A DNA stretch of 64,000 nucleotides from a virus. Below, in pieces: positions 35,047 through 57,193 of this stretch. Position 1 is the first letter of the stretch; each line of letters starts with the position of its first letter. The notes beneath the pieces were generated by a model. It was not told the origin of the DNA. It searched no databases and was given only the letters and a program-made list of their open reading frames with translations. The stretch is from IMG/VR virus record IMGVR_UViG_3300032006_002011, positions 13,604-77,603 of that record. One strand, written 5' to 3'. The translations under genes and the position numbers were made by a program.

Positions 35047-36817
35047 AAAGCACCAAGACGATAAACTTGGAGTAGTATGTTGTTATTTCAATCCATGTAA
35101 TTATCTTTCGCGATATATAAACTTTATATCATTCTATCAAGGTCTTCGTGAATATCCAAATATCAAGTTGCTTGTTGTAGAGTCTTATTCAGATTCTTCA
35201 AAATATAGAATATCAAAAGTTTGTCCTGACGTAATATCAATAGAATCTTCCGAGATATATTGGCAAAAGGAGCAACTCCTTAATATAGGACTTGAAAAAT
35301 TATACAAGGAAGGATATGAATGTATAACTTGTCTCGATGCGGATATAGAATTTTCAAATAAAGATTGGGTAGAAAACTCAATCTCTGCAATACGAGAATA
35401 TAAAATGGTTCAGTTATTTGATAAATGTATCAAAAAACTACCGAATAGTAAAAAACGCATTATCTCAAAATCTACGTGTGCGTATTTTAAGAATCAACTT
35501 CCTCCTGTCGATAAACTTCTGCAACGACCAGGAGAACCTGGGTTTGCATATGGCTACCACTCCAGTATACTAGAAACTTTTAGATTATACGAAAATGCCA
35601 TTATGGGTTCGGGTGATTTCCTGAACTTGTTGGGGTGTATTTATGATGGGAATGATTTGTCTGTCATGAAATCAGATAGATTTTTTGCAGGAGGCAATGA
35701 AGAATTTTTCAATGATTATATAGAGTGGGTATCTCGTAATGATTTGGAAATCGGTGAAATTAACACCGCAAACAATACAATCTATGTTGAATACCACGGC
35801 GAATATATGAAACGTTCTTATGTAGGACGAGAAGTAATATTAAAAAGAACCAACTACAATCCCAAGGAAGATGTAACTTTATTAAAAACGGGATTGTATA
35901 AAATCAACAACCAATCTTTGAGACAACAAATTTTATCCTACTTTCAGTCTAGAGATGAAGATGGTTTTATCGGAGTGGTTAACCGAAATCGTCCGTTTAG
36001 AAATAAGATATTAAAATTAATACTAAACAACAACCCCGATTATGATATAACTCAAACAGAACTTGATAATTTGAATGAACTTGAATACAAAGAACCACCT
36101 GAACTTCATTGTGATATTCCCAAACTTTCAAACGACACAAATCGTGTGGTGATTGCATCAAAGACAACCGAGGAATTTTTCGCGGTCAAAAGAATCTCAG
36201 CTGACGAACACATTGTGGTAGATAAATCAAAATACCCACAGAGAAATACAATCAAATCAACAAATGGTTCAGGAGACGCAGAAACATACTTAAGTTTCAT
36301 AATCAAAAATTATGAAATTTTACCCGAGTGTTGTGTGTTTATATCAGATAATCTTAAAAGAAAAACAAGAGAGTATCAACCTTTGGTCAACAAAGTCTTG
36401 AAAACAAACCCGACCCCCGATGACAAATTAATCTATATAGTTGATTCATACAACACAATATATGTTGATAAAACTATTCATATAAAGGGTACTATAAAAG
36501 TAACGCATAAAACCAAGCAATATGTAAACTCATTGATGCCGAGTAATTACAACTATACAAACTGGGTGGAACACTTTATATCCAAGGAGAAGTTTCAAGT
36601 ACTAAATAGGAGTGTAAACAAACTCACACAGACAATGATACTGAAAGATGGAGTCCAATTAAAATATAATCCGAATAATTCATTCTTAATAAGTGGTGAT
36701 AAAATTAGAAACCGAGAAAAGTCATTTTATGAAACACTATACTCTCGGTTGGTTGGAGAACACAATACAGAGGAATCGTTATATATAAACAGAAGTTGGG
36801 ATATTATATTCAAATGA
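35030..36817 (+). CDS. GT-A-fold glycosyltransferase fused to a DUF3431-like domain
   Basis: WQKEQLLN, LDAD, MGSGD; C-terminal GDAETYLSFIIKNYEILP...FLISGDKIRNREKSFY. Confidence 0.65.
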   Translation: MKTENEKHQDDKLGVVCCYFNPCNYLSRYINFISFYQGLREYPNIKLLVVESYSDSSKYRISKVCPDVISIESSEIYWQKEQLLNIGLEKLYKEGYECITCLDADIEFSNKDWVENSISAIREYKMVQLFDKCIKKLPNSKKRIISKSTCAYFKNQLPPVDKLLQRPGEPGFAYGYHSSILETFRLYENAIMGSGDFLNLLGCIYDGNDLSVMKSDRFFAGGNEEFFNDYIEWVSRNDLEIGEINTANNTIYVEYHGEYMKRSYVGREVILKRTNYNPKEDVTLLKTGLYKINNQSLRQQILSYFQSRDEDGFIGVVNRNRPFRNKILKLILNNNPDYDITQTELDNLNELEYKEPPELHCDIPKLSNDTNRVVIASKTTEEFFAVKRISADEHIVVDKSKYPQRNTIKSTNGSGDAETYLSFIIKNYEILPECCVFISDNLKRKTREYQPLVNKVLKTNPTPDDKLIYIVDSYNTIYVDKTIHIKGTIKVTHKTKQYVNSLMPSNYNYTNWVEHFISKEKFQVLNRSVNKLTQTMILKDGVQLKYNPNNSFLISGDKIRNREKSFYETLYSRLVGEHNTEESLYINRSWDIIFK

Positions 36818-37674
36818 TAATCATATCAATACATCTGTTTCCACACGAAATAAAAAGATTTAGGCGTATCGTCCAAACTTTTAAAAAGTCCGTTCCGTAT
36901 ATAGAAGACACCTCCCAAATAAAAATGTTAGTTACTCTAAATACGAACTCTAAGTTAATTGACTGGGGTACTGAATCTGATGATATAGTATGTGCGGAGT
37001 TTGAAGAAATATGCAAAACAATTCCGTTTGCAGTTTGTTGGGAAATAAAAAACGAACCCACTTATTTGGGAGTTAACGAACACAGAAGAAATTCTATACA
37101 CACATCCTTGCTTGGTGATACAATAATATTTCTAGACACAGATTTATACTTTGAAGAGCGACTTCTTGCACACCAAATAAATGCAATAAGTTTAATTAAA
37201 ACATTAAATGAGTATTATGTAATATCCCCACAGATATTAAGATTATGGGATGCTACGTGGGATTGTATAGTTAATAAAAAATATCTAGATAAACCACTTG
37301 ATTATTACAAAACCGCAACTCCAATAGATCATGTAAACGTAGACCACGGAAGTGTTGGGGTACTTCCCATTCAAACTTTCAAATGGGGTGGTGGTTGGTT
37401 CAATGCAATTTCCGCAAACCTTTTAAAATACATTGGACTACCCGAGTCATTTGTGGGATACGGACCCGATGACACATTTGTCATGGAGTGTTGTAAGATA
37501 ATGAAAAAGCATAACAAAGACATACAACAATATGTGCTTTCAAATATGATAGTAATGGAAGATCAAGAACCCATTGAAAGTTCAATAAAACTTAAAAACA
37601 ACACTCTCAACTTTAGAGAAGAATGTAACAAACACTTTTTATCCGAGATTTCCAAGTTTACACAAAAACTATAA
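36814..37674 (+). CDS. GT-A-fold glycosyltransferase
   Basis: FLDTD, GGGWF, GYGPDDTF. Confidence 0.7.
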   Translation: MIIISIHLFPHEIKRFRRIVQTFKKSVPYIEDTSQIKMLVTLNTNSKLIDWGTESDDIVCAEFEEICKTIPFAVCWEIKNEPTYLGVNEHRRNSIHTSLLGDTIIFLDTDLYFEERLLAHQINAISLIKTLNEYYVISPQILRLWDATWDCIVNKKYLDKPLDYYKTATPIDHVNVDHGSVGVLPIQTFKWGGGWFNAISANLLKYIGLPESFVGYGPDDTFVMECCKIMKKHNKDIQQYVLSNMIVMEDQEPIESSIKLKNNTLNFREECNKHFLSEISKFTQKL

Positions 37675-37687
37675 AAATTTCATATAT

Positions 37688-38500
37688 ATGGATATGAAAC
37701 TGCGACATATTCTAACCTCAGGAACCATCCTTGCACTGGCACTTATGAACCAGGGTTGCTTTAATGTAACATGGGGATTAAAAGAACAACGAACAGAAAT
37801 TGCAGGAGAAATTGCAAGAAAAGAAGGTGAACTAGACCGGCACACAAGAGCATTCGTTTCGGGAACTGTAGACGCCCTGTCCCTTTCAGAAGAGAAATCC
37901 AAGGAAGATTTGGTGGCACTTAATCTCGCACAAAAGGCACAAGAAATAATCGGACTACCACAACCGGGTGATAAAATTCATGTTGAAGACGTAATCAATC
38001 AAAACGAACTTGCTTTGGAAAATCTATCCGACAGAGACACCGATGTCATTAAACTTAGCAGACGAAAGGAAATGCTCGGCCACGACTTAAAGGATACCGA
38101 AGAAAAACTTATTAGTTTGGGAGAACTCAAAGCACAAGAAGAAAAAGACGGATTCTTTTCCTCATTGTGGGGGTGGTTAACGGGAACATTCGGCTTACTC
38201 GGAGCAATCGCAGTTTGCATAATAGCAGGTCCTGCATTGCTCCCACTCATAACCCAATTATTCGGTTGGTTGGTAGGTAAGATACCAGGACTAATTACAT
38301 GGTTGGGAATTACAAGTAGTAGGATGACAAGTAATATCATTAAGGGTGTCCACGATGCCAAAGAAAAAATTCGTGCGGTGGAAGATGACAAGAAATTCAG
38401 TAAGAACGAAGTTTTGGGAATATTCGGTTCATCTCTTGGAAACTCAACCAATGACACCGACAAAAATGTCATTGCGAGAATAAAACGCAGATTCAAGTAA
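37688..38500 (+). CDS. Lipoprotein with C-terminal transmembrane segment (u-spanin-like topology)
   Basis: Signal peptide ending MNQG-C, helical middle, hydrophobic LWGWLTGTFGLLGAIAVCIIAG segment. Confidence 0.55.
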   Translation: MDMKLRHILTSGTILALALMNQGCFNVTWGLKEQRTEIAGEIARKEGELDRHTRAFVSGTVDALSLSEEKSKEDLVALNLAQKAQEIIGLPQPGDKIHVEDVINQNELALENLSDRDTDVIKLSRRKEMLGHDLKDTEEKLISLGELKAQEEKDGFFSSLWGWLTGTFGLLGAIAVCIIAGPALLPLITQLFGWLVGKIPGLITWLGITSSRMTSNIIKGVHDAKEKIRAVEDDKKFSKNEVLGIFGSSLGNSTNDTDKNVIARIKRRFK

Positions 38501-38570
38501 TAAACCCCCACCTTTGTTATATTTATAACAAAAGGTTATACCGCATTTTAATTTATGGAGATTGCGTTAT

Positions 38571-39446
38571 ATGAAGATTGGAGTTGTTGGTAATGGGTTC
38601 GTGGGTCATGCAATGACATTGCTTAGACCACACGTTGAAGTATTGGTATGGGACATAGTTGCCGAAAAGAGAGATCCAAAGACATTGGATATTGAAACAT
38701 TTGTCGAAGAGTCCGAAATTATTTTCGTTGCAGTTCCTACACCGATGAATTCAGATGGTAGTTGCAACCTAAACATTGTTCGTGACGTATGCGAAGAAAT
38801 ACAAGAAATAGATGACACCAAGTATATAGTGTTACGTTCTACAGTTCCTCCTGGAACAAGTGAAGAACTTGACGTGGCATTCATGCCGGAATTCCTCACG
38901 GAAAAGAATTGGAAAACCGATTTTAAAAATTGCGATCAATGGATACTTGGTTCAACCGATCCGTTCTTGTATGAAAAAATGAAACGTATGTTTGAACTTG
39001 CCCACGACAATGGTAATGGTTCGGTAATAAACAAGAGCGTTATTCAGTGCAAACCAAGTGAAGCAGAAATGATAAAGTATTTAAAGAACGTATTTCTTAG
39101 TGTTAAGGTTGGGTTCTTTAACGAACTTGAGTCAATATGCTCAGAGTTGGACATTAATTATGAAAATGTTCGTTGTATCGCAACCCAAGATAAACGAATT
39201 GGAAGTGGTCATACTAAAGTTCCTGGACATGATGGACACCGAGGTTTCGGTGGAACGTGTTTCCCAAAGGACACCAATGCACTCGCAAGTTTTGCAGAAG
39301 ACAATATGATACCAACTCCGATTCTTGATGCGGTTATCAAAAGAAATGAAGAACTTGATCGTCCAGAAAAAGATTGGATGGCAGATAAAGGTCGAGCAGT
39401 CTCCGCAGAAATCAAATCAAAGAAATCCAAAAAAGAAACCGAGTAA
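38571..39446 (+). CDS. ugd: UDP-glucose/GDP-mannose dehydrogenase (short phage form)
   Basis: GNGFVG, VPTP, RSTVPPGT, PEFL, GFGGTCFPKD. Confidence 0.9.
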   Translation: MKIGVVGNGFVGHAMTLLRPHVEVLVWDIVAEKRDPKTLDIETFVEESEIIFVAVPTPMNSDGSCNLNIVRDVCEEIQEIDDTKYIVLRSTVPPGTSEELDVAFMPEFLTEKNWKTDFKNCDQWILGSTDPFLYEKMKRMFELAHDNGNGSVINKSVIQCKPSEAEMIKYLKNVFLSVKVGFFNELESICSELDINYENVRCIATQDKRIGSGHTKVPGHDGHRGFGGTCFPKDTNALASFAEDNMIPTPILDAVIKRNEELDRPEKDWMADKGRAVSAEIKSKKSKKETE

Positions 39447-39449
39447 GAT

Positions 39450-40403
39450 ATGGACTACTACGATTTCTTTAATGGTGATGCGGATGGTATCATAAGTCTA
39501 CATCAATACAGAACGCACTATCCAAAGAACTCCAAGTTGTTTACTGGAGTCAAACGTGACGTGAAGTTACTTAGACATTGTACCGACATAAAAGACTCCA
39601 TGTTTACTGTGTTTGATATATCCTTGCTTTCCAATGCAGACTATATAAAACCAATATTGGATAATGGAAATCATGTCAAGTGGTTTGACCACCATGAACC
39701 AGGTGAAACGGAACTGGGAGATAACTTTAGCATCAAGGTGGATGCAGACCCCAATTGTTGCACAAACATATTGGTTGATGAGTATTTGAATGGTTTGTAT
39801 CGTCCGTGGACAATATGTGGAATATATGGAGATAACCTCCACGAACAAGCAGACAAATTTAATCCATGCTTCAACAAAGAGTCAATGAACAAATTAAAGG
39901 AAGTTGGTGAAACATTAAACTACAATGGATATGGAAACGAGGAACTTGACTTGACTGTTCACCCCAAAGACGTATATCTTGACCTGAAGGATTATGAATC
40001 TCCGTTCGAATACAGAAAGAAGTCGGAAACCTATCACAAGATTCACACACAGATGACCTCAGACGAAGCAGAATTAAGTTCTTCGGAAATTATATACGAT
40101 ACGGAAGTTGGAATGGTTATCATCTTACCCAACACAAGAGCATCAATAAGATATTCGGGAATTTATAGCAATCAACAAACAACAGATAATCCAGACAAAG
40201 CATTTGCAATACTTACTTCAGTAGACGGAGGGAACTACCGCATCAGCATTCGTTCACCAAAAACAAATCCATACGGAGCAAGCAAACTGGCATTGCAGTT
40301 TCCAACGGGGGGTGGGCGTGAGAAAGCTGCGGGAATAAACGAACTCCCAAAGTCAGAACTAATAAATTTTATTTCAAAGTTTGAAGAAGTATACGGAAAA
40401 TGA
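39450..40403 (+). CDS. DHH/DHHA1 phosphoesterase
   Basis: NGDADG, WFDHH, GGGREKAAG. Confidence 0.85.
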   Translation: MDYYDFFNGDADGIISLHQYRTHYPKNSKLFTGVKRDVKLLRHCTDIKDSMFTVFDISLLSNADYIKPILDNGNHVKWFDHHEPGETELGDNFSIKVDADPNCCTNILVDEYLNGLYRPWTICGIYGDNLHEQADKFNPCFNKESMNKLKEVGETLNYNGYGNEELDLTVHPKDVYLDLKDYESPFEYRKKSETYHKIHTQMTSDEAELSSSEIIYDTEVGMVIILPNTRASIRYSGIYSNQQTTDNPDKAFAILTSVDGGNYRISIRSPKTNPYGASKLALQFPTGGGREKAAGINELPKSELINFISKFEEVYGK

Positions 40404-41029
40404 TTGTATCTCATAAGCACAAGTTCATATTTTTCAAACCGTGGAAAGTCGGTGGTAATAGTGTTGAACATAATTTGATTGAGCATTGTGGTGATAAAGA
40501 CTTAATAGACACAACACACAGAAATCCCAAAGACACCCTTGACATAATAGGAAAACGAAAGTTCAACAAGTACTTTAAGTTTACAATCGCAAGGAATCCT
40601 TGGGATAGAATGGTTTCTTATTTTTGGTGGCAAGACGGGGGTTTGGTAGGAAAGAATCACAGAAAGAACATTAACAAACTTGTAAAGATGCAGTTTAACG
40701 GATATCAGTTCAAAGAACAATTTGCTCGTTGGATTGGAAACTATTCCCACTTCAACCAACCTTTCTATTTTGATGACAAAGGAAATCCAATAATGGACCA
40801 CTATATGAAGTTTGAGAACCTGGACAACGACTATAAGAAAATTTGCAAGAAGCTAAAGTTACCATACAAGAGTCTTAAAAAAATAGGAACATTTCCATTC
40901 AAGAAAAAGAATGAAGAATATTGGAAATATTACAACTATGAGTCGGGTGCGGTAATTGCACAACGACACAAAAAAACAATAGAAATGTTTAATTATACGT
41001 GCGGTCCCGCACCAAAGAAAGATATTTAA
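40400..41029 (+). CDS. Sulfotransferase (Sulfotransfer_2 type)
   Basis: KFIFFKPWKVGGNS 5'-PSB-like loop, RNPWDRMVSYF 3'-PB motif, FENL. Confidence 0.8.
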   Translation: MIVSHKHKFIFFKPWKVGGNSVEHNLIEHCGDKDLIDTTHRNPKDTLDIIGKRKFNKYFKFTIARNPWDRMVSYFWWQDGGLVGKNHRKNINKLVKMQFNGYQFKEQFARWIGNYSHFNQPFYFDDKGNPIMDHYMKFENLDNDYKKICKKLKLPYKSLKKIGTFPFKKKNEEYWKYYNYESGAVIAQRHKKTIEMFNYTCGPAPKKDI

Positions 41030-41033
41030 TTAT

Positions 41034-41285
41034 ATGAAGTTATCAGATGTCAAAATAGAAAACGATCAAATAGTTCTGAAATTTGATTATCGTATGTATG
41101 GCATTGGTGATGATATTACCATGATGCACGATTTGAAATTGTGGTCAAACCCAAAGAAAGTTTGTGAAGACTTGGTAAATACCGCAAATGGTATTATAGA
41201 TATATTAGAACTTGATATGGAAATTAAATCGGTAGAAACAAAGTCCGACATTTCTTCACAAGACTTGTCCGACAGATGGGGATAA
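41034..41285 (+). CDS. Hypothetical protein
   Basis: 83-aa ORF in operon spacing. Confidence 0.6.
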   Translation: MKLSDVKIENDQIVLKFDYRMYGIGDDITMMHDLKLWSNPKKVCEDLVNTANGIIDILELDMEIKSVETKSDISSQDLSDRWG

Positions 41286-41289
41286 AATT

Positions 41290-41661
41290 ATGAGTGAACA
41301 AGACGAAAGCATTAGACCTTGGGGAAATTACGAAATTCTCCTAGACGCAGATTACTGCAAAGTTAAACGCATCTTTGTAAAACCCGGACAACGACTTAGT
41401 TATCAGTACCACCACAAACGACAAGAAGCATGGACGGTCGTTAGTGGAGTTGCAAGAATAACCTTGGATGACGTTACCGAAGATTACAAACCAGGTGAAA
41501 CTGTTTTGATTCCACTTGGTGCAAAGCATCGCATGGCAAACCCAAGTGATGACGAAATGATGATTTTAATTGAAGTTCAAACAGGAACTTATTTTGGTGA
41601 GGACGATATTGTGCGTGTTCAAGATGACTATGATCGTCCAGAAAAACACGAATCGGAGTAA
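41290..41661 (+). CDS. Cupin, mannose-6-phosphate isomerase type II C-terminal domain
   Basis: RPWG, LSYQYHHKRQEAW, HR, EVQTG.YFGEDDIVR. Confidence 0.9.
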   Translation: MSEQDESIRPWGNYEILLDADYCKVKRIFVKPGQRLSYQYHHKRQEAWTVVSGVARITLDDVTEDYKPGETVLIPLGAKHRMANPSDDEMMILIEVQTGTYFGEDDIVRVQDDYDRPEKHESE

Positions 41662-41665
41662 CCTT

Positions 41666-42073
41666 ATGAAAACAGTAGCAGTTAGTGGATACTTTGACCC
41701 AATTCATGTGGGACACTTGGAATACCTTGAGTTGGCAAAAGAACTTGGTGATCGTCTTGTTGTTATCGTAAACAACAATCATCAATGTGTTCTTAAAAAA
41801 GGCAAACCATTTATGGATGAAGCAGACCGAGTAAAAATCGTAGAAGCACTCGGAATCGTTGATGAGGCATTTCTCAGCATTGATAAGGACAAAAGTGTAT
41901 GTGCTTCACTCGATGCAATTAAACCAGACATCTTTGCAAATGGTGGAGACAGAAGTGTGGGTGAAGTTCCAGAAAGTGTTGTTTGTAAGAAACATGGAAT
42001 AGAAATGGTTGATGGTCTCGGCGACAAAATCAGAAGTTCTTCTGACCTGACTGGACTAAAAGAAAAGAAGTAA
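41666..42073 (+). CDS. Cytidylyltransferase-like nucleotidyltransferase (HxGH)
   Basis: SGYFDPIHVGH, FANGGDR, IRSSS. Confidence 0.9.
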   Translation: MKTVAVSGYFDPIHVGHLEYLELAKELGDRLVVIVNNNHQCVLKKGKPFMDEADRVKIVEALGIVDEAFLSIDKDKSVCASLDAIKPDIFANGGDRSVGEVPESVVCKKHGIEMVDGLGDKIRSSSDLTGLKEKK

Positions 42074-42092
42074 GGTTTGTCTACTTATAGTT

Positions 42093-42998
42093 GTGGACAA
42101 AGTACTTATAACAGGTGGTGCGGGATTTGTCGGAACTGCACTAATTAAAAAACTTATACGCAAGTATAAGAACATTGAAATTGTTTCCATTGACAATTAT
42201 AGTAGTGGTTCGGTGAACAATCATGTAAAGAGCAAGAAAGTAACTTATCTTGATAAGGATACTCAAAACTTAGTTCCCAAAAAATTCGGCATGAACGATA
42301 CCAAGATGGACATTGCCGATGCATTTGAACCAGATGTCGTTTTTCATTTCGGTGAGTTCTCAAGAATCGTAACGAGTTTCGATTCTTTTGATAATTGTTG
42401 GGACTACAATATGCAAGGCACAAAAATGGTTCTTGATTATTGTGTCGCAAAAAAAGCAAAGTTGGTTTATAGTGCAAGTTCAAGTAAGTTCGGAAACGAT
42501 GGGAAGGACGAAAACCTTTCTCCATATGCTTGGATGAAAGCAAAGATGGTTGAACTAATTAAAAACTATTCAGAGTGGTTTGACTTAAAATATGAAATCA
42601 CCTATTTCTATAATGCGTATGGACCAGGACAAATAAGAACTGGGGATTATGCAACCGTCATCGGAATCTTTGAAGAGCAATACTCCAAGGGAGAACCACT
42701 TACAGTTGTAGAACCAGGTGAACAATCAAGAGACTTTACCCACATCAGTGATATTGTACGGGGAGTTATACTGGCCGCAGAGAAAGGAAGGCAAGATGAG
42801 TATCCCCTCGGCACGGCAATTTCACATAAAATTATTGATGTGGCAAAAATGTTTAACCATGAATATGTTATGATTCCAGAAAGGAGAGGTGAGAGATTTT
42901 ACGGAAAAGCAATTCCCTCACTAACTTATCAGCATCTTGGTTGGGTAGCAAAAATTAAGTTGGAAGATTATATTTCAAAAATCATATGTAAAAAGTAA
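42093..42998 (+). CDS. NAD-dependent nucleotide-sugar epimerase/dehydratase (extended SDR)
   Basis: TGGAGFVG, YAWMK (YxxxK), YNAYGP, RDFTH. Confidence 0.9.
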   Translation: MDKVLITGGAGFVGTALIKKLIRKYKNIEIVSIDNYSSGSVNNHVKSKKVTYLDKDTQNLVPKKFGMNDTKMDIADAFEPDVVFHFGEFSRIVTSFDSFDNCWDYNMQGTKMVLDYCVAKKAKLVYSASSSKFGNDGKDENLSPYAWMKAKMVELIKNYSEWFDLKYEITYFYNAYGPGQIRTGDYATVIGIFEEQYSKGEPLTVVEPGEQSRDFTHISDIVRGVILAAEKGRQDEYPLGTAISHKIIDVAKMFNHEYVMIPERRGERFYGKAIPSLTYQHLGWVAKIKLEDYISKIICKK

Positions 42999-43027
42999 TT
43001 GACTTATTTTAGTCAATGGGCTATAAT
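42999..43027 (+). promoter_or_regulatory. Near-consensus sigma70 promoter of the asnB operon
   Basis: TTGACT-N17-TATAAT, 10 nt before ATG 43038. Confidence 0.8.
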
Positions 43028-43037
43028 ATATGATACA

Positions 43038-44684
43038 ATGTGCGGTATATTAGGCGGTAACCAATTCAACGATATAGAACAGGTCAAAACTGGTCTGGCA
43101 TCTATCATGCATCGTGGTACGGACGGAAACGTAGTGTTCCACTTCAAAGAAAATGACTTCTATATGTGTCATAACAGGTTGTCTATTCAAGACTTATCAG
43201 AGTCAGCAAATCAACCGCTCATATCAGAAGATGAAAAATTTATTTTGGCATTTAACGGGGAGATGTGGAAACCATTCTTTAGGAAGTTCAATTCCAAACT
43301 AAGAAAAAAATACAACTTCAAGACTGAGCGGAGTGATTCGGAGTTGTTACTTTATTACTTAATAGATAATCGTGACAACATATTGAAGTCAATGAAGAAA
43401 CTTGACGGAATGTTTTGTTTTGCTTTTTATGACATAGAAAGAAACGAACTTACGTTGGGCAGAGATTTCATCGGAAGGCTTCCTTTATACTATGCGTTTG
43501 AAAAAAACAAAATAGTTTTCTCAAGTGAAGTAAAGGGAATACAATCGGCAAAACCAGAATATAAGTTTTTTAATGTAGACAGAAGTCGTAAACCACCCGA
43601 GGGACAGGAAGAGAAAATAAAGGTTGTAGAACCAGGAACAATTGTAACGGTTTCCAAAAATTTCTTTGGTACTATCAGTTGCGAAATCAAACGATGGAAC
43701 GATTTCAAACCCGAGTTCAACCCAGAGAACCCAACCCTATATACTCGTTCCGAGACAGACTTAACCCTACTTGAAGGGGAGGACTTAGGAATTGACTATT
43801 ACGCATCCGAGTTCAGAAAACGGTTGGAAAAAGCAGTTGACGATGAATTGATTAGTGACACCCCAATCTGTACGATTTTAAGTGGTGGCATTGATAGTAC
43901 AATCATCACATATCTTCTAAAAAAGAAGAACCCAGACATTGAAGCATTCGTGGTAAACGTAACGTCAAACAGAAAGCAGACACTAAAAGATGACTTATAT
44001 TATGCCAAGATAGCTGCCAACGAATTGGGAGTTAGGTTACACGAAGTTAATGTCAGCAAAGACGATATTGAAAACAATCTAAAAGAAAGCATCTGGGCAT
44101 CCGAGACTCATAAGTGGACACAGGTATCTCCTGCGGTTGCTCAACTATTCTTGTCGTGGGAAATCCGTGACAAAGGATATAAGGTTGTATTTGGTGGAGA
44201 GGGAGCAGATGAAATCTTTGCAAGTTATGGAGACGTCAAGAGATTCTGTTGGCCCGACCCACTTGCTTGGCATCAAAAAAGAGTCAACCTCATCAACAAC
44301 CTTCACAAGAATAATCTCATCAGAACCAACAAGGCAATGATGTATGGTGGCAAGGTAGAATTGAGAACTCCGTTTCTAAACAAGGAAGTTATTGATTTCG
44401 GTTTAAGGATTCCGACCAGATATAGAGATGAAGCAGATGGTAAGGGAAACATAATGAAGTATGTTTTGCGGAAAGCATTTGAGGGAGAGATTTCAGAAGA
44501 ACTTCTCTGGAGACCCAAAAAGACTTTTCAACAAGGATGTCACACGGATTACTTAAAGAAGGAGCAGGAGACCATAGATAAATACTTTAATGAATTGTTC
44601 GTTGAAAACAAAGTTCCTGCCAAATATATTGGTAGGAGTATTGGTCATGTATCTGCTAGAATCAAAGTAAAGGAGATGGCATGA
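43038..44684 (+). CDS. asnB: Asparagine synthetase B-like glutamine amidotransferase
   Basis: MCGI Ntn cysteine (true start 43038), HRG, RLSIQD, NGE, LSGGIDS, GEGADE, ELRTPFL. Confidence 0.9.
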
Positions 44685-45490
44685 ACATATTACTAAAAGA
44701 CAAATCAGACCTCGGTGAAGTAGACAAGTTTATCCCCAATGCCCATGTTCTTGGAGCAATGCAAAAAGCAGACGGCATTCCAACCCAAGACATTAAAGTA
44801 ATATCCACCAAGTTCAGCAAGGTGGGCAAGACCACCCTAGACAAATACCCAAACCTTGAGTGGGTTGTTCACAGAGGTCATGGGGTTGATTCGGTCAACC
44901 TAAAGTTATGCAAACAACATAACGTGGGAGTCGTTGCAACAAGCCCAAACACAAACGGATGTGCTTACTGGATAAAGGATAAACTGATTGAGGGTGATTG
45001 CGTTATATTCGGCAACGGAGTCATTTCCAAAAAAGTTCAAGGTATCGTTGAAGAAAATTTTGAAATTATAAATTCAAAGACGGATAGTGCAACAATTAAA
45101 CAGATAGTGTCACTTCCCAATATCAAAAACATAATCACAACAGTACCGTTGAATGATTCCACAAAAAATATGTTTGATGCAGAATTGTTTGAAAACTGCA
45201 ACTCGGTGAACTTTGTATCCATCAGTCGTGCGGAATGCCATGACAATTTAGCCTTGCTTTCTCTGATAAACGGTGGTAATATAGCATCCGCACATATTGA
45301 TACATTGGGAACAGAGTTAAGGGAAGAACTAATCGACACCGAAAAAGTTAAATACTACAATCACACCTCATGGGATTTCCTTGGGGAAAAGAACGATCAT
45401 AAAAAGTTGAGTGAGATTATCAACGATTGTTTGAATGACAAAGTAAGCAATGCAATTTTAGAAAGGCAAGAAAACAAATGGTTTCAGTAA
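44681..45490 (+). CDS. Divergent D-isomer 2-hydroxyacid dehydrogenase-like protein
   Basis: [34 protein letters not shown]-terminal HTSW. Confidence 0.65.
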
Positions 45491-46686
45491 AAGAAAAGAA
45501 GACACAGAAAGTCAAAGTCAAGGATGACATTTCAGATGAAGTTAAGGATGCGTTTAGGAAACACGCAAAGTTTTATCAGGAATACGATGTTCCACCACAG
45601 TGGAAAGACCAACCCATTGCGTGTAAAGAACCCAACCTAGATCCATTTAAGAAAATTAATTGGAAGAACTTATGGGAAGCAGACCGAAAGGGAAGGTTGT
45701 TTTGGCACGAAGATGAAAACAATGAAATTGTATGGAGTTACATTTGTGCGGAAGCAAAGTCGAGTCGTGGTATCAAGGATATAGCAGAAGATGTCGTGGC
45801 AACCATCAAGGCAGGTGATTTGCAAATCTCACGATTCGCATATGCACCCGAATGGAAGCAAGAGTTAATTGATGACATTGAATCCAAACGTGAATTGGAA
45901 AACGACTTCTTCAACACCAAGAGAGACTTATTTTTTACAGACGTCAACATGGAACTTCAACAAGACAAAGATGTCTGCGAGGCACTAAATGCAACTTGGT
46001 TGAGTAGCAAGGTAACCGCAGTTGGATCGGAAGTCCGTGGTATTTGGTATGAAGGCGAATTGAAGCAACCCGGTGTATCCAAGTACGAAGACATCAAAAT
46101 TAAAAAGATGAAACTATCTTCTATCAACAAAAAGGAATGTGCGGAACTTGTTCAAGAAATCAAAGATTACAAGGAAGCAGTTAATCCTTGGAGTTATGAT
46201 GGAATCAACGGAAACTACGGAGGACCAGAAAAGACTTGGTACACCATTGAAGTAGTTCCAATTAATCCCAATAGTGAAACTGACTATACGATTCTTGAGA
46301 AACTTCCCAAACTTGCCAAGATTGTAAACGAAATAACTTCAGTTGACAAATGCACTTGGTTGGTTATCACAAGAGTAGAACCAAAGAAGGGAGTCATTCA
46401 ACGGCATACCGACATTGGTCACGATAGTTGGGACTACCAAACCAAAAATGGTCCTAAACTTGGTCGTTCTCTGCGAGTACACTTCCCAATTCAAGTTGAC
46501 GAAGATTGTGTATTCACTCAAGTTGGACTTGACGGAGAAACCGAAGACTTCCGTTTAAAGACGGGGGAATATTACTATATGGATAAACGCAAACCTCACT
46601 GGGTTGTAAACAACTCCGAAGATTATAGGTTTCATGTAATCATGGATTTGGAGTGTGAACAAAAACACTTGGATGCTCTCCTTTAA
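45478..46686 (+). CDS. Fusion of an unassigned (possibly GNAT-like) N-domain and an Asp/Asn beta-hydroxylase-type 2OG-Fe(II) dioxygenase
   Basis: IQRHTD (HxD), [25 protein letters not shown]. Confidence 0.75.
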
Positions 46687-47554
46687 TTTCAATACTCCCA
46701 CCGAAGAATATTCTTGTGATGGTCGTTCTGTTTATGTAAAACGGGATGATTTGCTCAACGGAGATATGGACTTACCTCCTTGGGCAAAGATGGAAGGCAT
46801 CCGCAGGGTACTTGAAAGTGGTGACCTAAACAAAGATATTCCAATTATACACTTATCAGTTCGTGTAAGTTATAGTGGTTGGGCATTGGCATATATAGGT
46901 CGTGAACTTGGGTTTGACATTAAGATTGCTTATCCAGATAGTAAGGACTACCCAAAAGAAGCACTTAAAAAGATAGAGAGTTTCGGTGCGGAAACGGTGC
47001 CAATTAAACCCAACCTACTTAGCATTGTGCTGAACCGAGTTAAGGCAATGGCAAAAGAAGAAGGATTTCAAATGATGCCGTATGCGTTTAATCACCCTGC
47101 TTATATTGATTATTTCCAAACAAGGATGCAAGATATATTAAAAGAAACAGATTTTGACCACCTTGTTATTAGTGGTGGTAGTGGGGTTACGGGTTCGGGT
47201 TTAATCCGTGGGTTTATGGACTTTGATAGTTTTTTCCCCAAGAAGAAAGTCCACATTATTTCTACTGCATCGGAGAATTCCATTGCAAACGTATTAAAGA
47301 AGTGGAACGCATATCACAGAAGCAACATCCGAATTCACGAAACCGAACATGATTTCTTTGATGACATGGATTGGTGCGAAGTTCCATTTCCGTGCAACGG
47401 AAATTGGGATAAGAAAGCATGGATATGGTTACAAGAAAATGCTCGCAATTTAGACGGAAGCGTACTATTCTATAATCTTGGTGGACATAGTGCATCATAT
47501 TTTTGGAAAACACAAAATGAAGAAATACTTTTACGAGAAGAACAACCTAACTGA
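46655..47554 (+). CDS. PLP-dependent enzyme, fold type II (ACC deaminase / D-cysteine desulfhydrase-like)
   Basis: VYVKRDDL, PPWAKME, SGGSGVTG phosphate loop, FYNLGG; alternative ATG at 46673. Confidence 0.8.
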   Translation: MNKNTWMLSFNFNTPTEEYSCDGRSVYVKRDDLLNGDMDLPPWAKMEGIRRVLESGDLNKDIPIIHLSVRVSYSGWALAYIGRELGFDIKIAYPDSKDYPKEALKKIESFGAETVPIKPNLLSIVLNRVKAMAKEEGFQMMPYAFNHPAYIDYFQTRMQDILKETDFDHLVISGGSGVTGSGLIRGFMDFDSFFPKKKVHIISTASENSIANVLKKWNAYHRSNIRIHETEHDFFDDMDWCEVPFPCNGNWDKKAWIWLQENARNLDGSVLFYNLGGHSASYFWKTQNEEILLREEQPN

Positions 47555-49106
47555 GTGTAAGGTCAATATCACATTTCATGAACTTCTTCAGAAGAACGGA
47601 GAAGAACTTGAACAATGGATAGACGAACTTAGAAACTATATCGTTGAGACATGGGATAAGCAGGGGTTACCACCAAGAACAGGTAAAAACGAAAAAGACA
47701 TCATCGCTCAGTTCAATAAACTTCAACGATACGACACCAAGAAGTTTCTACATAAAGATGAAATGGATGGAACTATGACCATCGTAAAGAACTTCAATAA
47801 GTTTGCAACTGTCATTGACCAATTCTTTCCAACGATGCTCAAGACCAAAATTGGTTCAAGCAAACACACGTCTTGGAGTGTATATGATTGCTTTGCCAAT
47901 CCAGAGAAACGAGAAAGTTTTCATACTTGCATGAGACGAACGATACGCAGAGATTCCTTTTTTGCTCATGGAAAAACGATAGGAAAAAACGATACCTCAG
48001 TTCCGTGTCCAACTGAAGATGGTGAGGAGTGGGTTAGGAACTTTGTCAAGGAAAAGGAACTTCACCCCGAGAACGACTTTTGGATTATTGAATTGTTCAC
48101 CGAAAAGAAGTTTGACTCGTATGAAGAAAGTAGTTTGATGTTGACTGCAAAGCAAATCAAGAAATTGTACAAAGAAGGTTTACTCGAAACAAACAACATT
48201 AGAAATCTTGAACGAACCGCAAACTTCGGTGACGATATGGAAAACCTAAACGACACCATCATTGAAGATGAGAAGGAAGTTAATTTTAAATTCAGCATTC
48301 GTTATTACGACAAGACTTCTCGTATTTTTCCTTCAGCAATGGAAGCATTCAAACTTGGGTTGAGTCAACCGGCGGTAAACTTTCCTCCTCTGACTGCAAA
48401 ATATATATACCAGAAGTACACGGATCACGTGGACAACAAAGATGATATTACCATATATGATCCAAGTTCTGGGTGGGGTGGAAGAATTCTCGGTGCTATG
48501 AGCATTGATGATAGGCAGATTCATTATGTTGGAACTGACCCAAATACCGACAACTATATTGATGAAATTGGAAAGTCTCGTTACGAATATGTTGCCGACT
48601 TCTTCAATGAAAAGACCAATGGTGGTAATCCGTTCTTTGGCCATCGTAATACATATGATGTTTATCAAGACGGAAGTGAGGACATTCACAAGAACCCACG
48701 ATTTCAGAAATACAAAGGTAAACTTGATTTGGTTTTTACAAGTCCACCATATTTTAATCGTGAACAATACTCAGCTGACGAATCTCAGAGTTTCAAAAAG
48801 TTTCCTGAGTATGAAGATTGGAGAGACAACTTTCTTCGTCCCACGTTGAAAACCGCATCGGAATATCTAAAGCATGATCGTTATCTATTGTGGAACATTG
48901 CGGATATCGGTGATGGGGATGGATTCATGCCACTTGAGCAAGATAGCAAAGATATTCTTGCGGAATACGGACTTGAGTATGTTGAAACTCTTAAGATGCT
49001 TATGACAACAATGAGAGGAGTCAAGGCAGAACAGGTAAAGAATTGTTGCAAGATAAACGGAGAACTACAGAAGTACGAACCTATATTTGTGTTCTACAAG
49101 AAGTGA
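47517..49106 (+). CDS. SAM-dependent amino-methyltransferase-fold DNA modification enzyme
   Basis: YDPSSGWGGR (motif I), GTDPN, FTSPPYF (motif IV). Confidence 0.8.
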   Translation: MKKYFYEKNNLTECKVNITFHELLQKNGEELEQWIDELRNYIVETWDKQGLPPRTGKNEKDIIAQFNKLQRYDTKKFLHKDEMDGTMTIVKNFNKFATVIDQFFPTMLKTKIGSSKHTSWSVYDCFANPEKRESFHTCMRRTIRRDSFFAHGKTIGKNDTSVPCPTEDGEEWVRNFVKEKELHPENDFWIIELFTEKKFDSYEESSLMLTAKQIKKLYKEGLLETNNIRNLERTANFGDDMENLNDTIIEDEKEVNFKFSIRYYDKTSRIFPSAMEAFKLGLSQPAVNFPPLTAKYIYQKYTDHVDNKDDITIYDPSSGWGGRILGAMSIDDRQIHYVGTDPNTDNYIDEIGKSRYEYVADFFNEKTNGGNPFFGHRNTYDVYQDGSEDIHKNPRFQKYKGKLDLVFTSPPYFNREQYSADESQSFKKFPEYEDWRDNFLRPTLKTASEYLKHDRYLLWNIADIGDGDGFMPLEQDSKDILAEYGLEYVETLKMLMTTMRGVKAEQVKNCCKINGELQKYEPIFVFYKK

Positions 49107-50738
49107 TCACTCAGAAAACAATTCTATCTTTCCGTTTATACCACACGTGGCAAGTTTGATACCAAAAAACTTTTGCAGATAATCAAGTGCTTTTGCACCT
49201 TGTTTCTTTATCCAGGCAAATGCCTTGGATACTCTCTCGGAAATCCAATTCCAAATCTTAACAAACCGGTCTTTAACTTTATTACTTACAGATGCGATTC
49301 CATCTCGGACTTTCTTAATCATTTGCCATTCATTAAGATTTTGAAAACTCGATTCGGTTAAAAGTCGTTTTCCAAATTCGTCTTGCTCAAGACCTTGTTG
49401 GATGATTGTAGAAAAGGTTGGACATATCGCTGAAAAGTTTTTATTTTCCATTATCTGCTTTTGCATCCAAGCAGTAACCTTTTTTGGGTCTTGCTCCATG
49501 TTCCCCCGAAGTGCCATATAAGGAGTGCTATTCCCACTTGTCTTGAATGACAAATAAAACTTGTATTGACTTGCAAGAGAAGAAATATCCTTTACGGTAT
49601 TCATTTTATAATTTGATGTGATCTTACCACTATTGGTATCTATTTCCACCATAGTATCAGCACGACTCTCTGAAGAGTCACCAAACTTTACTGAACCAGT
49701 TGCGGCCTCAAACACAAATAAGTCTTTAAACTTTGCATCCGACAAAAACAGACGATTCATTTCAGACGTAATATACTTTCCATCCTCACGTGCTTGTTTA
49801 AGATTGTCAACGACTGGTTTTAGTTTTTTCATTTTCTTGGGGTCTGCCTCACTTGCCTTTATATCTTTTTCAAGAGAGTCTATGCTACCTCGGTAACCAC
49901 TTTCCGATAAATCAAGAACTGCGGTTTTGAATTTATCCAAGATTTTATTTACTTCACTTGGATAATTCTTGCCATACATTCTAACCGCCGCACCAAACGT
50001 AGATGCAGCCTCTGCTTGCTTGGCACTCATTGCTTGAGAACCACCTGCTTTCTTTAATGAAATTTTCTTTGAACCACCCTTAATGTCAGTCTTGGGGGTT
50101 TTGTTCATTGTACCACTTCCATACTCCTTGAATATATCTCCCCACTCACCGGACACACCAGCACCACCCTTCCCACTACCTGTTTGTGAGATTGGAGAAT
50201 ATCCATTCTTCTTAAATGCAGACGCGAGTTTTTCAGCAATGTCTCTATTAAAATCATCATTCCAGAATCCCTTTCTCTCTATTCTACTCCATTCGTCTGG
50301 AACTTCTTTAGAAGGATCTTTCTTCTGAATAGTTGCAAGACCGATAGCAATCATTGCTTCCCAATCTTCACCACTTGGATTTCCACTACTGGCACCACCA
50401 CTCAAATTATTTTGAGACTTACCAATGTCAGTCATGGAAGTCCCAAACAATTGTTTGATTTTATTTTCTTTGGTATTCCCACCCCACCCTACCAAGTCCT
50501 TGTGACTATCTGCATCAAGCAATTCCTTTTTCATCTGCTTCCATAGAGACTTAGTTCCACTCTTTACTTTTAGTGGGTTATTCTTTGCATCAAGCATCTC
50601 ATCTGCTTCAACTTTATCAATGAATCGTTGCTTGTTATCTCGTTTGAACAGGTCGTGCAACGCAAGTTCACACAAAACATCTTCATACTCAACAGAAGTA
50701 ATCAGAGACTTATTCAAATAATGTTCTACAATGTCCAC
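49107..50738 (-). CDS. Putative virion-packaged protein with a restriction-endonuclease-like core (paralogue 1)
   Basis: DWEAMIA...KTDI-x6-ISLKK.GGSQ, FEAATG.VKF; TATATTTAT upstream. Confidence 0.5.
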   Translation of the reverse strand: MDIVEHYLNKSLITSVEYEDVLCELALHDLFKRDNKQRFIDKVEADEMLDAKNNPLKVKSGTKSLWKQMKKELLDADSHKDLVGWGGNTKENKIKQLFGTSMTDIGKSQNNLSGGASSGNPSGEDWEAMIAIGLATIQKKDPSKEVPDEWSRIERKGFWNDDFNRDIAEKLASAFKKNGYSPISQTGSGKGGAGVSGEWGDIFKEYGSGTMNKTPKTDIKGGSKKISLKKAGGSQAMSAKQAEAASTFGAAVRMYGKNYPSEVNKILDKFKTAVLDLSESGYRGSIDSLEKDIKASEADPKKMKKLKPVVDNLKQAREDGKYITSEMNRLFLSDAKFKDLFVFEAATGSVKFGDSSESRADTMVEIDTNSGKITSNYKMNTVKDISSLASQYKFYLSFKTSGNSTPYMALRGNMEQDPKKVTAWMQKQIMENKNFSAICPTFSTIIQQGLEQDEFGKRLLTESSFQNLNEWQMIKKVRDGIASVSNKVKDRFVKIWNWISERVSKAFAWIKKQGAKALDYLQKFFGIKLATCGINGKIELFSE

Positions 50739-56107: not shown

Positions 56108-56183
56108 TGGTGGAGCTGAACGGGATCGAACCGATGACCTTCTGAATGCAAATCAGATGCTCTTCCAGCTGAGCTACAGCCCC
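56108..56183 (-). tRNA. tRNA-Ala(TGC)
   Basis: Cloverleaf, G3:U70, encoded CCA. Confidence 0.95.
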
Positions 56184-56254
56184 AATTAAAAATATACGTA
56201 TATATACTCATTAAATATACATATACATTTATATAAAAAATGATAAAAGGTGAA

Positions 56255-56986: not shown

Positions 56987-57020
56987 GTGAATATATAAAT
57001 ATAAACATATAAGAAAAAAG

Positions 57021-57109
57021 TGGCGGAGAGGACAGGATTCGAACCTGCGGTTGCATTACACAACACAACATTTCCAATGTTGCACATTAAACCACTCTGT
57101 CACCTCTCC
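57021..57109 (-). tRNA. tRNA-Ser(GGA)
   Basis: Long variable arm, CAACA-TTGGAAA-TGTTG anticodon arm, CCA. Confidence 0.95.
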
Positions 57110-57112
57110 CCC

Positions 57113-57189
<77 letters not shown>

Positions 57190-57193
57190 ACGT

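Follow-up and report, generated by a model that had tools for sequence, protein, structure and literature searches.

Pseudomonas phage M6 and Salmonella phage ViI make the hypermodified thymidines 5-NedU and 5-NeOmdU, respectively, by a route in which 5-hmdU is acted on by a DNA kinase and an amino-acid:DNA transferase (AADT) and is then tailored by enzymes such as a PLP decarboxylase, a radical SAM enzyme, and an FAD enzyme or acetyltransferase (PMC5889632, PMC8989533). Purified M6 gp52 decarboxylates C-alpha-glycinylthymidine in DNA (PMC8989533; PMC5889632). In Synechococcus phage S-B43, the CmoA/CmoX/CmoY system gives rise to 5-carboxymethylcytosine and its glycine amide; glycine is joined to 5-carboxymethylcytosine by CmoY, an AsnB homolog, and amidation of a carboxylate on DNA has been predicted for an AsnB clade that carries a glutaminase (PMC12783734). 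In microcin C synthesis, the SAM-dependent methyltransferase (MTase)-fold enzyme MccD transfers an aminocarboxypropyl group and the PLP domain of MccE, which also bears a GNAT domain, decarboxylates that group (PMC10491745). Finally, the GNAT-fold enzyme Mom of phage Mu decorates N6 of adenine in DNA with glycine, for which Gly-tRNA is the donor (PMC13219725).

Here we describe five tightly packed enzyme genes from an uncultured marine T4-like phage, of which a stretch of 64,000 nucleotides (the window) was analyzed. No paper describing this cassette was found in the literature. On the basis of homology and genomic context, the cassette probably encodes an undescribed DNA hypermodification pathway (i.e., one that adds a larger-than-methyl decoration to a base rather than contributing to a sugar coat). 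Elsewhere in the window, 10 tRNA genes are clustered at positions 56108 to 57900.

Layout of the cassette and its upstream region

As the original prediction had it, five overlapping open reading frames occupy positions 43038 to 49106 on the plus strand, and their families in Pfam and NCBIfam are those of the proposed operon: AsnB, a 2-hydroxyacid dehydrogenase (2-HADH), a GNAT-2OG fusion, a PLP enzyme, and an MTase-fold protein (MTase5), in this order. The AsnB and 2-HADH genes meet in an ATGA overlap, and the subsequent junctions overlap by 13 nt (2-HADH/fusion), 14 to 32 nt (fusion/PLP gene, depending on the start of the latter), and 38 nt (PLP gene/MTase5). A single 5.8-kb contig from an independent seawater metagenome covers the epimerase gene, the cassette, and the start of the MTase gene and shows 10 differences; thus, the gene arrangement is not an assembly artifact.

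The separate promoter that had been claimed for the operon was also located. A sigma-70-like site, TTGACT-N17-TATAAT, can be read directly in the sequence at 42999 to 43027 (plus strand), within the 39-nt gap between an epimerase gene and AsnB. It is the best site of its type in the region and the sole 11/12 match within 38 to 51 kb, where the total number of promoter-like sites (35 found versus 37 expected) is not above chance. In relatives L065 and L070, both hexamers are kept although the spacer between them has diverged; in relatives L062 and L064, they are not kept. Since the AsnB ATG lies 10 nt downstream of the -10 hexamer, the transcript would be nearly leaderless.

Upstream of the cassette, on the same strand, lies a 12-kb glycan gene set that includes glycosyltransferase, UGDH, sulfotransferase, cupin, cytidylyltransferase, and epimerase genes. 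The cassette follows directly, an order that is conserved in this lineage, and its position behind genes for a UDP-sugar dehydrogenase and an epimerase counts against the DNA reading; such a setting is classical for the AsnB-type uronamide-forming enzymes of O-antigen clusters. The cassette might accordingly equip the upstream cluster's sugar polymer with an acyl, amide, or amino-acid group or modify such a group (e.g., by forming a uronamide, if AsnB acted on what the UDP-sugar dehydrogenase produces). AspH-family enzymes, which also hydroxylate lipid A and Kdo (LpxO and KdoO), likewise favor glycan tailoring, while the cassette's own promoter-like site speaks against it.

AsnB and the 2-hydroxyacid dehydrogenase

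The first gene (43038 to 44684, plus strand) encodes an AsnB-type glutamine-dependent amidotransferase of 548 aa with matches to Pfam Asn_synthase (2.6e-52) and GATase_7. Both of its active sites are intact, with an MCGI start that provides the Cys2 nucleophile, an SGGIDS PP-loop, and a GGEGADE motif, and E. coli AsnB (1ct9) is its top match in the PDB (2.5e-47). Compared with S-B43 CmoY, it gave no match at 1e-5, and the two are not close relatives. The second gene (44681 to 45490, plus strand) encodes a short protein (269 aa) of the D-isomer 2-hydroxyacid dehydrogenase family. Both Pfam 2-Hacid_dh domains exceed the cut-off, and the HGxD motif, the GxGxx(G/S) loop, R183, D207, and H228 are invariant in 26 homologs.

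AsnB passes the asparagine synthase equivalog cut-off of TIGR01536 (276 bits; cut-off, 267). That it scores as a bona fide asparagine synthetase counts against the DNA reading and is consistent with an auxiliary metabolic role that concerns free amino and keto acids. In that case, AsnB would make asparagine, the PLP enzyme and 2-HADH would turn a free amino acid into a 2-oxo and then a 2-hydroxy acid, and the methyltransferase would be an unrelated neighboring DNA methylase. In 26 loci, the PLP gene lies next to the HADH gene, and the pair sometimes occurs alone (L148, L153, and L157); MTase5 persists in the absence of the cassette; both observations fit such a metabolic role.

A PLP enzyme of the M6 gp52 family

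The fourth gene (46655 to 47554, plus strand; start at GTG 46655 or, more likely, ATG 46673) encodes a fold-type II PLP enzyme (Pfam PALP, 5.6e-13; phrog_7093, 3e-25), the only cultured-phage matches of which are in M6-like Pseudomonas phages and one Sphaerotilus phage. BLASTP aligned it with M6 gp52 over the full length (aa 13 to 276 versus 5 to 277; 27% identity; E = 5e-23). Its invariant K45 aligns with the PLP lysine of gp52 (K36), and the C-terminal signature PFPCN..WD.KAW.WL..LF(W/Y)N(L/I)G is common to both proteins. Judged by sequence, the enzyme is a member of the gp52 family (i.e., decarboxylases of DNA adducts); given just 27% identity, its substrate and reaction type may differ from those of gp52.

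No relative of this PLP subfamily came up when 185,579 prokaryote species genomes were scanned. Its absence from these cellular genomes and the activity of its characterized member on DNA argue against auxiliary metabolism, as do the repeated occurrence of the module, in varying gene order, amid genes for replication and for MTase-fold proteins and the nucleotide-level thymidylate synthase (TS)-fold enzyme carried by sister modules. We regard a role in free amino acid metabolism as quite unlikely.

The GNAT-2OG fusion

The third gene (45478 to 46686, plus strand) encodes a two-domain protein of 402 aa, in which a GNAT-fold domain (aa 22 to 196; nt 45541 to 46065) precedes an AspH/prolyl-hydroxylase-like 2OG-Fe(II) oxygenase domain (aa 204 to 402; nt 46087 to 46683). 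It matches Pfam Asp_Arg_Hydrox (7e-9), and its residues H310-x-D312 and H374/H386 are invariant. VIA-align comparisons of its AF2 model (pLDDT 77) returned proline 3-hydroxylase (Z 14.4) and AspH (Z 12.5), as well as GNATs over aa 22 to 194 (Z 11.7), and the GNAT domain has no obvious acyl-CoA loop. The whole-length BFVD match (E = 1.6e-19), gp4 of Mycobacterium phage LilMcDreamy, is the sole cultured-phage relative of the fusion (BLASTP, 2e-29 to the L003 variant and 1.6e-12 to the window protein). The gp4 gene comes after genes for a ParB-like protein, a protein with a weak likeness to Tet/JBP, and an amino-acid:DNA transferase (ADDT; PF18724, 47 bits; cut-off, 26), an architecture that is also that of ParB-dependent T-dioxygenase clusters (PMC13229309).

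MTase5 and other methyltransferases

MTase5 (529 aa; 47517 to 49106, plus strand) starts at the same ATG (47517) as its homologs and consists of an N-terminal domain of unknown function (roughly 285 aa) and a class I SAM-MTase domain (aa 286 to 529; nt 48372 to 49103, plus strand). Its motifs I and IV read DPSSGWGGR and FTSPPYF, of which GWGGR and TSPPY are invariant across 26 homologs, and it matches phrog_498/12517. The solved folds nearest to its AF2 model (pLDDT 83) are the tRNA m2G methyltransferases Trm11, TrmN, and Trm14 (Z 15 to 16, versus about 13 for generic MTases). This counts against the DNA reading and, together with the 10-tRNA gene cluster, favors an RNA target (i.e., modification by the SPPY enzyme and cassette of the phage's own 10 tRNAs or those of the host). 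The nearest viral models, however, carry annotations as DNA methylases, of the N4-C or another type (E = 1e-14 to 1e-11, versus 1e-5 for RNA MTases), the homologs carry partial PF01555 matches, the family is found between clamp and clamp-loader genes, and it is in DNA pathways that the PLP and GNAT-2OG relatives are placed. We consider an RNA target highly improbable.

A paralog, MTpar (405 aa; 60634 to 61851, plus strand), has the SPPY catalytic domain of MTase5 with a different N terminus (BLASTP, 29% identity over the MTase domain, E = 1e-24; motifs GWGDR and FTSPPYFN; PF01555, 28.8 bits; cut-off, 26.7), and in other phages it adjoins or lies within the cassette. An ordinary C5-cytosine DNA methyltransferase (61830 to 62972, plus strand; TIGR00675 dcm, 1.3e-54) was rejected as a CmoX-like enzyme, its motif IV being GGPPCQ and not the SPPC of CmoX (PMC12783734).

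Genomic neighborhoods of the cassette

Across 80 viral contigs, the PLP gene accompanies an AsnB, HADH, AspH, or TS-like gene. Among the 40 loci with at least four genes on each side, AsnB is present in 31, a TS-fold gene in 23, and polB, clamp, helicase, or UvsX in 20; an MTase5 or MTpar gene lies within four genes of the PLP gene in 28 and five to six genes away in most others. The SPPY MTase-fold gene stays against the cassette in four gene orders (the window, L066/67, L075, and L069/71/73); linkage to the methyltransferase, on which the original prediction had been staked beforehand, holds in at least that many. The co-location could partly reflect a common insertion hot spot near replication genes.

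Sugar genes occur in just 5 of the 40 loci, solely in this lineage, and at the other 35 the module lies near polB, clamp, UvsX, or helicase genes. The locus is hypervariable: relatives with 84 to 90% identical MTase5 have the cassette, lack it (L011 and L012), or carry a swapped AspH'/PALP'/second-MTase set (L003 type), and L011 and L012 retain MTase5 and the whole sugar cluster. These observations, together with the placement of the sole cultured-phage relatives of the PLP and GNAT-2OG proteins in DNA hypermodification clusters, weaken the virion-glycan alternative, which appears unlikely. The presence/absence/swap polymorphism among near-identical phages fits a role in protection from host nucleases, and shielding of phage DNA is the likely function of the cassette. 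The MTase family is about ten times commoner than the cassette (>2,000 proteins versus 214 PLP relatives), which counts against the DNA reading.

Predicted hypermodification pathway

The homologies and neighborhoods of the PLP and GNAT-2OG proteins make DNA hypermodification the best reading, and the general proposal of an undescribed pathway gains support from the gp52-family PLP enzyme, the fusion homolog in the LilMcDreamy operon, and the conserved MTase linkage. AsnB, 2-HADH, the GNAT-2OG oxygenase, and the PLP enzyme would make up a mobile cassette that tailors a hypermodified base and is functionally tied to the adjoining SPPY MTase-fold gene. The side chain on this base would resemble an amino acid in having both a carboxylate and a free alpha-amine. 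The PLP enzyme would work on the alpha-amino acid moiety, by decarboxylation if M6 gp52 is a guide; deamination to a 2-oxo acid may be possible where 2-HADH, which would interconvert 2-oxo and 2-hydroxy acid forms, is adjacent. The 2OG domain would hydroxylate the side chain, the GNAT domain would bind or acylate an amine, and AsnB would convert the carboxylate to an amide with glutamine as the donor.

The more specific chemistry first envisaged gains no such support. The characterized PLP relative decarboxylates rather than deaminates, and transfer of an aminocarboxypropyl (acp) group to N6-A or N4-C is set against the wider spread of the MTase family and its persistence without the cassette (L011 and L012). 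The pairing of PLP and AsnB genes with a TS-fold enzyme in sister modules points to pyrimidine C5 chemistry.

ThyA-family/TS-like, Tet/JBP, 5-hmdU kinase, AADT, and CmoA/CmoX enzymes were found neither in the window nor in relatives, of which the cassette-bearing ones are only 23 to 66% complete, a result that counts against the DNA reading; the lack of a visible 5hmU kinase or AADT, previously remarked on for the cluster, thus extends to the window and the relatives. The first group might be installed by the SPPY MTase-fold protein, with SAM as methyl or aminocarboxypropyl donor, or by the product of a gene in the remaining two thirds of the genome, outside the window.

Comparison with described systems

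As in the Cmo system of S-B43, an asparagine synthetase homolog adjoins an MTase-fold enzyme. However, no CmoA was found for the cassette, the MTase-fold partner is of the amino-MTase type (SPPY), and the C5 methyltransferase of the window has GPPC instead of SPPC. LilMcDreamy gp1 to gp4 (ParB-like, Tet/JBP-like, ADDT, and GNAT-AspH) form a predicted T-hypermodification operon (PMC13229309), in which the same GNAT plus AspH-like oxygenase would serve as the tailoring enzyme of a DNA modification cluster; that operon has initiating enzymes, none of which were found here, and lacks the PLP enzyme, AsnB, HADH, and SPPY MTase. With Mom, there is a precedent for action of a GNAT-fold domain on an exocyclic amine of a DNA base, but the cassette's GNAT domain, which is fused to a 2OG oxygenase and has no obvious acyl-CoA loop, matched Mom neither in sequence nor specifically in structure. 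By analogy only, the combination of MTase-fold enzyme, PLP decarboxylase, and GNAT domain in microcin C synthesis resembles a possible core of the cassette, although the substrate there is a peptidyl-nucleotide and not DNA.

Unlike M6 and ViI, the window, its relatives, and the 80 loci yielded neither a dUMP hydroxymethylase nor a kinase, an AADT, or a radical SAM enzyme, and the partners of the PLP enzyme are AsnB, 2-HADH, the GNAT-2OG fusion, and the SPPY MTase-fold protein. The likeness to these phages lies in a homologous fold-type II PLP enzyme with the same lysine, in the proximity of many cassette relatives to DNA polymerase, and in a strategy in which an appended amino acid would be sculpted by combinatorially swapped tailoring genes.

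Organization and occurrence of the five-gene locus

The window (bases 13604 to 77603 of a 77.6-kb IMG/VR viral record; completeness, 31% by CheckV) contains an unbroken plus-strand run of genes at positions 31148 to 49106. Its first part (31148 to 42998) is a stretch of sugar genes encoding glycosyltransferases, a UDP-sugar dehydrogenase, a DHH phosphoesterase, a sulfotransferase, a PMI cupin, a cytidylyltransferase, and an epimerase. After a 39-nt gap, five further genes follow (43038 to 49106): an AsnB gene, a 2-hydroxyacid dehydrogenase gene (HADH), a GNAT-2OG fusion gene (AspH), a PLP enzyme gene (PALP), and the gene for MTase5, an MTase-fold protein of 529 aa with an SPPY motif (47517 to 49106). 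The first four are referred to here as the cassette. The gap holds a promoter-like site (TTGACT-N17-TATAAT; 42999 to 43027) that is the sole 11/12 site within 13 kb, and its hexamers are kept across a diverged spacer in two relatives and not kept in two others. ORF positions and sequence thus confirmed the original prediction of five overlapping genes preceded by this motif. Another promoter-like site (TTTAGA-16-TATAAT, 10/12; 47449 to 47476) lies within the final part of the PLP gene and 40 nt 5' of the MTase5 ATG; it could permit separate expression of MTase5, which would fit the persistence of this gene in cassette-less relatives. The stop of MTase5 abuts that of a convergent 543-aa minus-strand gene (49107 to 50738) with zero intergenic bases, and no terminator-like hairpin was found between the two (49104 to 49109).

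The window also carries baseplate and tail-fiber genes, PhoH, three DNA-methyltransferase-like genes, and a minus-strand cluster of 10 tRNA genes (56108 to 57900; Ala, Ser, Val, Asp, Glu, His, Pro, Arg, Thr, and Cys). Almost no closed ORFs were called at positions 1 to 11000. Given this gene content and the T4-type order of polB, clamp, and clamp loader genes in relatives, the source is a large, uncultured T4-like phage. Marine plankton and seawater metagenomes from several studies contain the stretch; all listed occurrences are in DNA contigs and none in RNA data. A 5.8-kb contig from an independent study spans the epimerase gene, the entire cassette, and the start of the MTase gene. No junction deleting the cassette was detected in four sequencing runs compared with the window. 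The module is common in marine T4-like phages, with the PLP gene occurring in at least 214 viral contigs. When the region was compared by megablast with 50,697 phage records, no match was obtained.

A PLP enzyme of the M6 gp52 family

The PLP enzyme is of fold type II, in the style of ACC deaminase and D-cysteine desulfhydrase (VKRDDL ... K ... NxGG), with an invariant lysine. Among the 50,697 phage records, its only cultured relatives are encoded by Pseudomonas phages of the M6/YuA group and by one Sphaerotilus phage, and a pattern scan with tblastn revealed no relatives of the subfamily in 185,579 prokaryote species genomes. The window protein matched gp52, the PLP decarboxylase of Pseudomonas phage M6, over nearly its whole length (BLASTP, 27% identity, aa 13 to 276 versus 5 to 277, E = 5e-23; tblastn, 2e-9 in a 2.3-Gb database, 93% coverage). 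Its K45, invariant in 14 and in 10 homologs, aligns with the PLP-binding lysine of gp52 (K36), and a distinctive C-terminal signature is common to both proteins. By sequence, the enzyme is thus classed as a full-length homolog of the M6 gp52/ViI gp226 PLP-dependent decarboxylases, which act on amino acids attached to DNA. The gp52 gene represents one of the classes of genes seen only in phages that hypermodify thymidine (PMC5889632), and purified gp52 decarboxylates C-alpha-glycinylthymidine in DNA to yield 5-NedU (PMC8989533).

The GNAT-2OG fusion and a related operon in a cultured phage

The AlphaFold model of the hydroxylase fusion (pLDDT, 77) consists of two domains. Residues 22 to 196 adopt a GNAT fold, matched by several GNATs (Z = 10.5 to 11.7; rmsd, 2.9 to 3.5; 130 to 150 residues aligned), and the acyl-CoA loop (R/Q-x-x-G-x-G/A) is not evident in the alignment after the conserved DLQITRFAY strand. 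Residues 204 to 402 form an AspH/prolyl-hydroxylase-like 2OG oxygenase (Z = 14.4 for proline 3-hydroxylase and 12.5 for AspH; PF05118, 36 bits against a cutoff of 22.6), in which the HxD...H iron triad (H310, D312, and H374/H386) is invariant.

Mycobacterium phage LilMcDreamy encodes the best whole-length viral structural match of the fusion, gp4 (E = 1.6e-19; TM score, 0.64/0.69), whose sequence also matched the window protein (1.6e-12) and the variant at the related locus L003 (2e-29). In LilMcDreamy, gp4 closes an operon of four genes, after a ParB-like gene, one that weakly matches Tet/JBP, and an amino-acid:DNA transferase (AADT) gene, gp3, which is annotated as hypothetical (PF18724, 47 bits against a cutoff of 26). 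The second gene, gp2, is annotated as a queuine tRNA-ribosyltransferase, and its sole Pfam match is the weak one to Tet_JBP. This architecture has been described for ParB-dependent T-dioxygenase clusters, with their associated GATases, kinases, and AADTs (PMC13229309). Judged from these matches, gp1 to gp4 (L158:1-3759) look like an operon for thymidine hypermodification that has gone unrecognized in a cultured phage.

AsnB and 2-HADH

The window AsnB is complete, with an MCGI start (Cys2 nucleophile), an LSGGIDS PP-loop, and a GGEGADE motif, and its scores (TIGR01536, 276 against a cutoff of 267; PDB 1ct9, 2.5e-47) place the predicted protein in the class II glutamine-dependent asparagine synthetase B superfamily. 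An asparagine synthetase homolog, CmoY, ligates glycine to 5-carboxymethylcytosine in DNA, and a glutaminase-bearing clade is predicted to amidate (PMC12783734); the window AsnB shows no close relationship to the CmoY of S-B43. The 2-HADH is short and is assigned from its sequence features to the D-isomer-specific 2-hydroxyacid dehydrogenases: PF02826 (36.6) and PF00389 (32.9) each scored over the cutoff, and all 26 sequences compared retain the NAD loop GxGxx(G/S), R183, and H228. That the set of enzymes serves the metabolism of a free metabolite appears quite unlikely.

MTase5 and its paralog

MTase5 combines an N-terminal domain of approximately 285 aa with a class I MTase domain (Z = 13 to 16) that bears invariant GWGGR and FTSPPYF motifs. 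It carries the features of exocyclic-amine (N6-A or N4-C) MTases, i.e., SAM motif I and the SPPY motif IV. No Pfam or NCBIfam model matched MTase5; PF01555 gave partial matches only, around motif IV, in its homologs and in MTpar, and single-sequence and profile searches against PDB sequences returned nothing usable. In the ESM Atlas, the N-terminal 300 aa matched only unnamed viral clusters, below 0.9. MTpar (60634 to 61851) has the same catalytic domain and another N terminus, and its gene adjoins that of an ordinary Dcm-type methylase; the C5 MTase motif of the window is GGPPCQ.

The closest viral models to MTase5 bear DNA methylase annotations (N4-cytosine or other), and the closest solved structures are the tRNA m2G methyltransferases Trm11, TrmN, and Trm14 (Z = 15 to 16). 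An RNA target for the pathway is nevertheless considered very improbable. DNA amino-MTases and MccD were absent from the best 50 solved matches of MTase5, as were Tet/JBP folds and Mom from the corresponding top 50 for the GNAT-2OG model; since both lists were short and dominated by one domain, these families are not excluded. The MTase5 family comprises more than 2,000 proteins, is far more widespread than the cassette, and persists where the cassette has been lost. Hypermodification genes cluster near the DNA polymerase gene in known systems (PMC5889632), and MTase5 itself may be a plain DNA methylase beside which such genes cluster.

Conserved linkage across rearranged neighborhoods

From IMG/VR, we took 59 loci with MTase5, 17 with AspH, and 80 with the PLP gene and labeled their ORFs. 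Among phages with 84 to 90% identical MTase5, the hypervariable locus occurs in three states: the four-gene cassette (L004, L005, L010, and L061); no insert, with the epimerase gene leading directly into MTase5 (L011 and L012); and a replacement (L003, L006 to L009, and L013) in which an AspH-type gene (24% identical), an ORF of 156 aa, and a divergent PLP gene are followed by MTase5 and a second MTase5 paralog. These present, absent, and swapped alleles in near-identical phages amount to a natural experiment on the cost and benefit of the cassette.

More distant loci are rearranged further, with the orders polB - x - MTpar - (x) - PALP - HADH - AsnB - AspH - UvsX - DnaB (L066 and L067), AsnB - HADH - PALP - MTpar - AspH - polB - clamp - MTase5 - clamp loader (L075), and MTase5 - AsnB - unknown - HADH - AspH - PALP - HD (L069, L071, and L073). 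Linkage to the MTase, whose absence would have refuted the original prediction, is retained through four or more rearrangements and holds for both paralogs. Counts were taken on the 40 PLP loci flanked on each side by four or more genes. AsnB was present in 31 of these, HADH in 17, and AspH in 9; an MTase5 or MTpar gene lay at most four genes away in 28 and at a distance of five to six genes in most others; and replication genes occurred in half (20/40). Sugar genes were found in only five, all of the window's lineage. Tailoring of a glycan would thus fit the local gene context of this lineage but nothing beyond it, and we consider it unlikely.

A 232-aa gene of the thymidylate synthase (TS) fold (PF00303, 28.6 bits) is immediately 5' of AsnB in 23 of the 40 loci, and it stands directly upstream of AsnB-PALP in 38 of all 80 (L093:5796-6494; also, e.g., L108, L117, L124, and L137). 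Such loci often have ribonucleotide reductase upstream and MTpar-polB downstream. Two module types can thus be distinguished, i.e., TS-like plus AsnB plus PALP without HADH and AspH, versus modules containing HADH/AspH without the TS-like gene. The TS-fold partner in these sister modules hints at pyrimidine C5 chemistry.

An HD phosphohydrolase gene stands immediately 3' of the PLP gene in 35 loci. Its window homolog (23316 to 23969, minus strand), 47% identical to a PLP-adjacent one, lies among structural genes 20 kb from the cassette, and we treat the association as synteny rather than module membership. A gene of glycosyl hydrolase family 6 (cellulase type; L124:10662-11480; Pfam E = 1.7e-43) is located four genes 3' of the PLP gene in 14 loci of marine phages.

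Search for known starter enzymes

To our knowledge, the characterized amino-acid-type pathways all start from 5-hmdU, 5-carboxymethylcytosine, or Gly-tRNA. Queries with M6 gp51, gp54, and gp55 and with PF18724 identified no 5-hmdU DNA kinase or AADT in the window or in seven related genomes (G001 to G007); the three M6 queries also gave no match in the 80 PLP loci, none of which contains a kinase, AADT, or radical SAM gene of the M6 type. For a source of 5-hmdU, PF00303, the TS-like query, and PF12851 had no match, in cassette-bearing contigs that are only 23 to 66% complete. The classical 5-hmdU route is thus not supported, i.e., ThyA family, TS-like, Tet/JBP, AADT, and kinase genes were not found in these incomplete contigs. 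A CmoX-type reading was likewise set aside: there was no TIGR00740 match to the Cx-SAM synthase CmoA in the incomplete 77.6-kb record, the Dcm carries GPPC instead of SPPC, and AsnB is not close to the S-B43 enzyme.

Interpretation and comparison with known systems

The MTase linkage, together with the homologies to gp52 and to LilMcDreamy gp4, makes DNA base hypermodification the best reading of the five-gene set, and we regard it as probable. The set most likely represents a new form of phage DNA hypermodification machinery; full-text literature searches found no publication on this gene combination. Since tailoring enzymes of validated families occur here and none of the known starters was found in the window or in the incomplete contigs of relatives, a new modified base is expected, possibly with a new initiation route. 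The tailoring steps would follow one another in an order that we infer, with the PLP enzyme acting by decarboxylation or by elimination/deamination ahead of 2-HADH. Hypermodified phage DNA withstands restriction enzymes and CRISPR, and its hypermodifications are a source of new DNA-chemistry enzymes.

In a conceivable route free of kinase and AADT, the SPPY enzyme would put the 3-amino-3-carboxypropyl (acp) group of SAM, instead of methyl, on a DNA base, to be sculpted by the PLP enzyme, the GNAT-2OG fusion, 2-HADH, and AsnB. We view this route as doubtful, and the TS-fold partner of the sister modules hints in another direction. If true, the route would yield a purine or cytosine bearing an aminopropyl or hydroxy-amide group and not so far known from DNA. 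A biochemical precedent exists in microcin C synthesis, in which the MTase-fold enzyme MccD acts before the PLP decarboxylase domain of MccE (PMC10491745); by analogy only, the five-gene set would apply the MccD/MccE logic to DNA.
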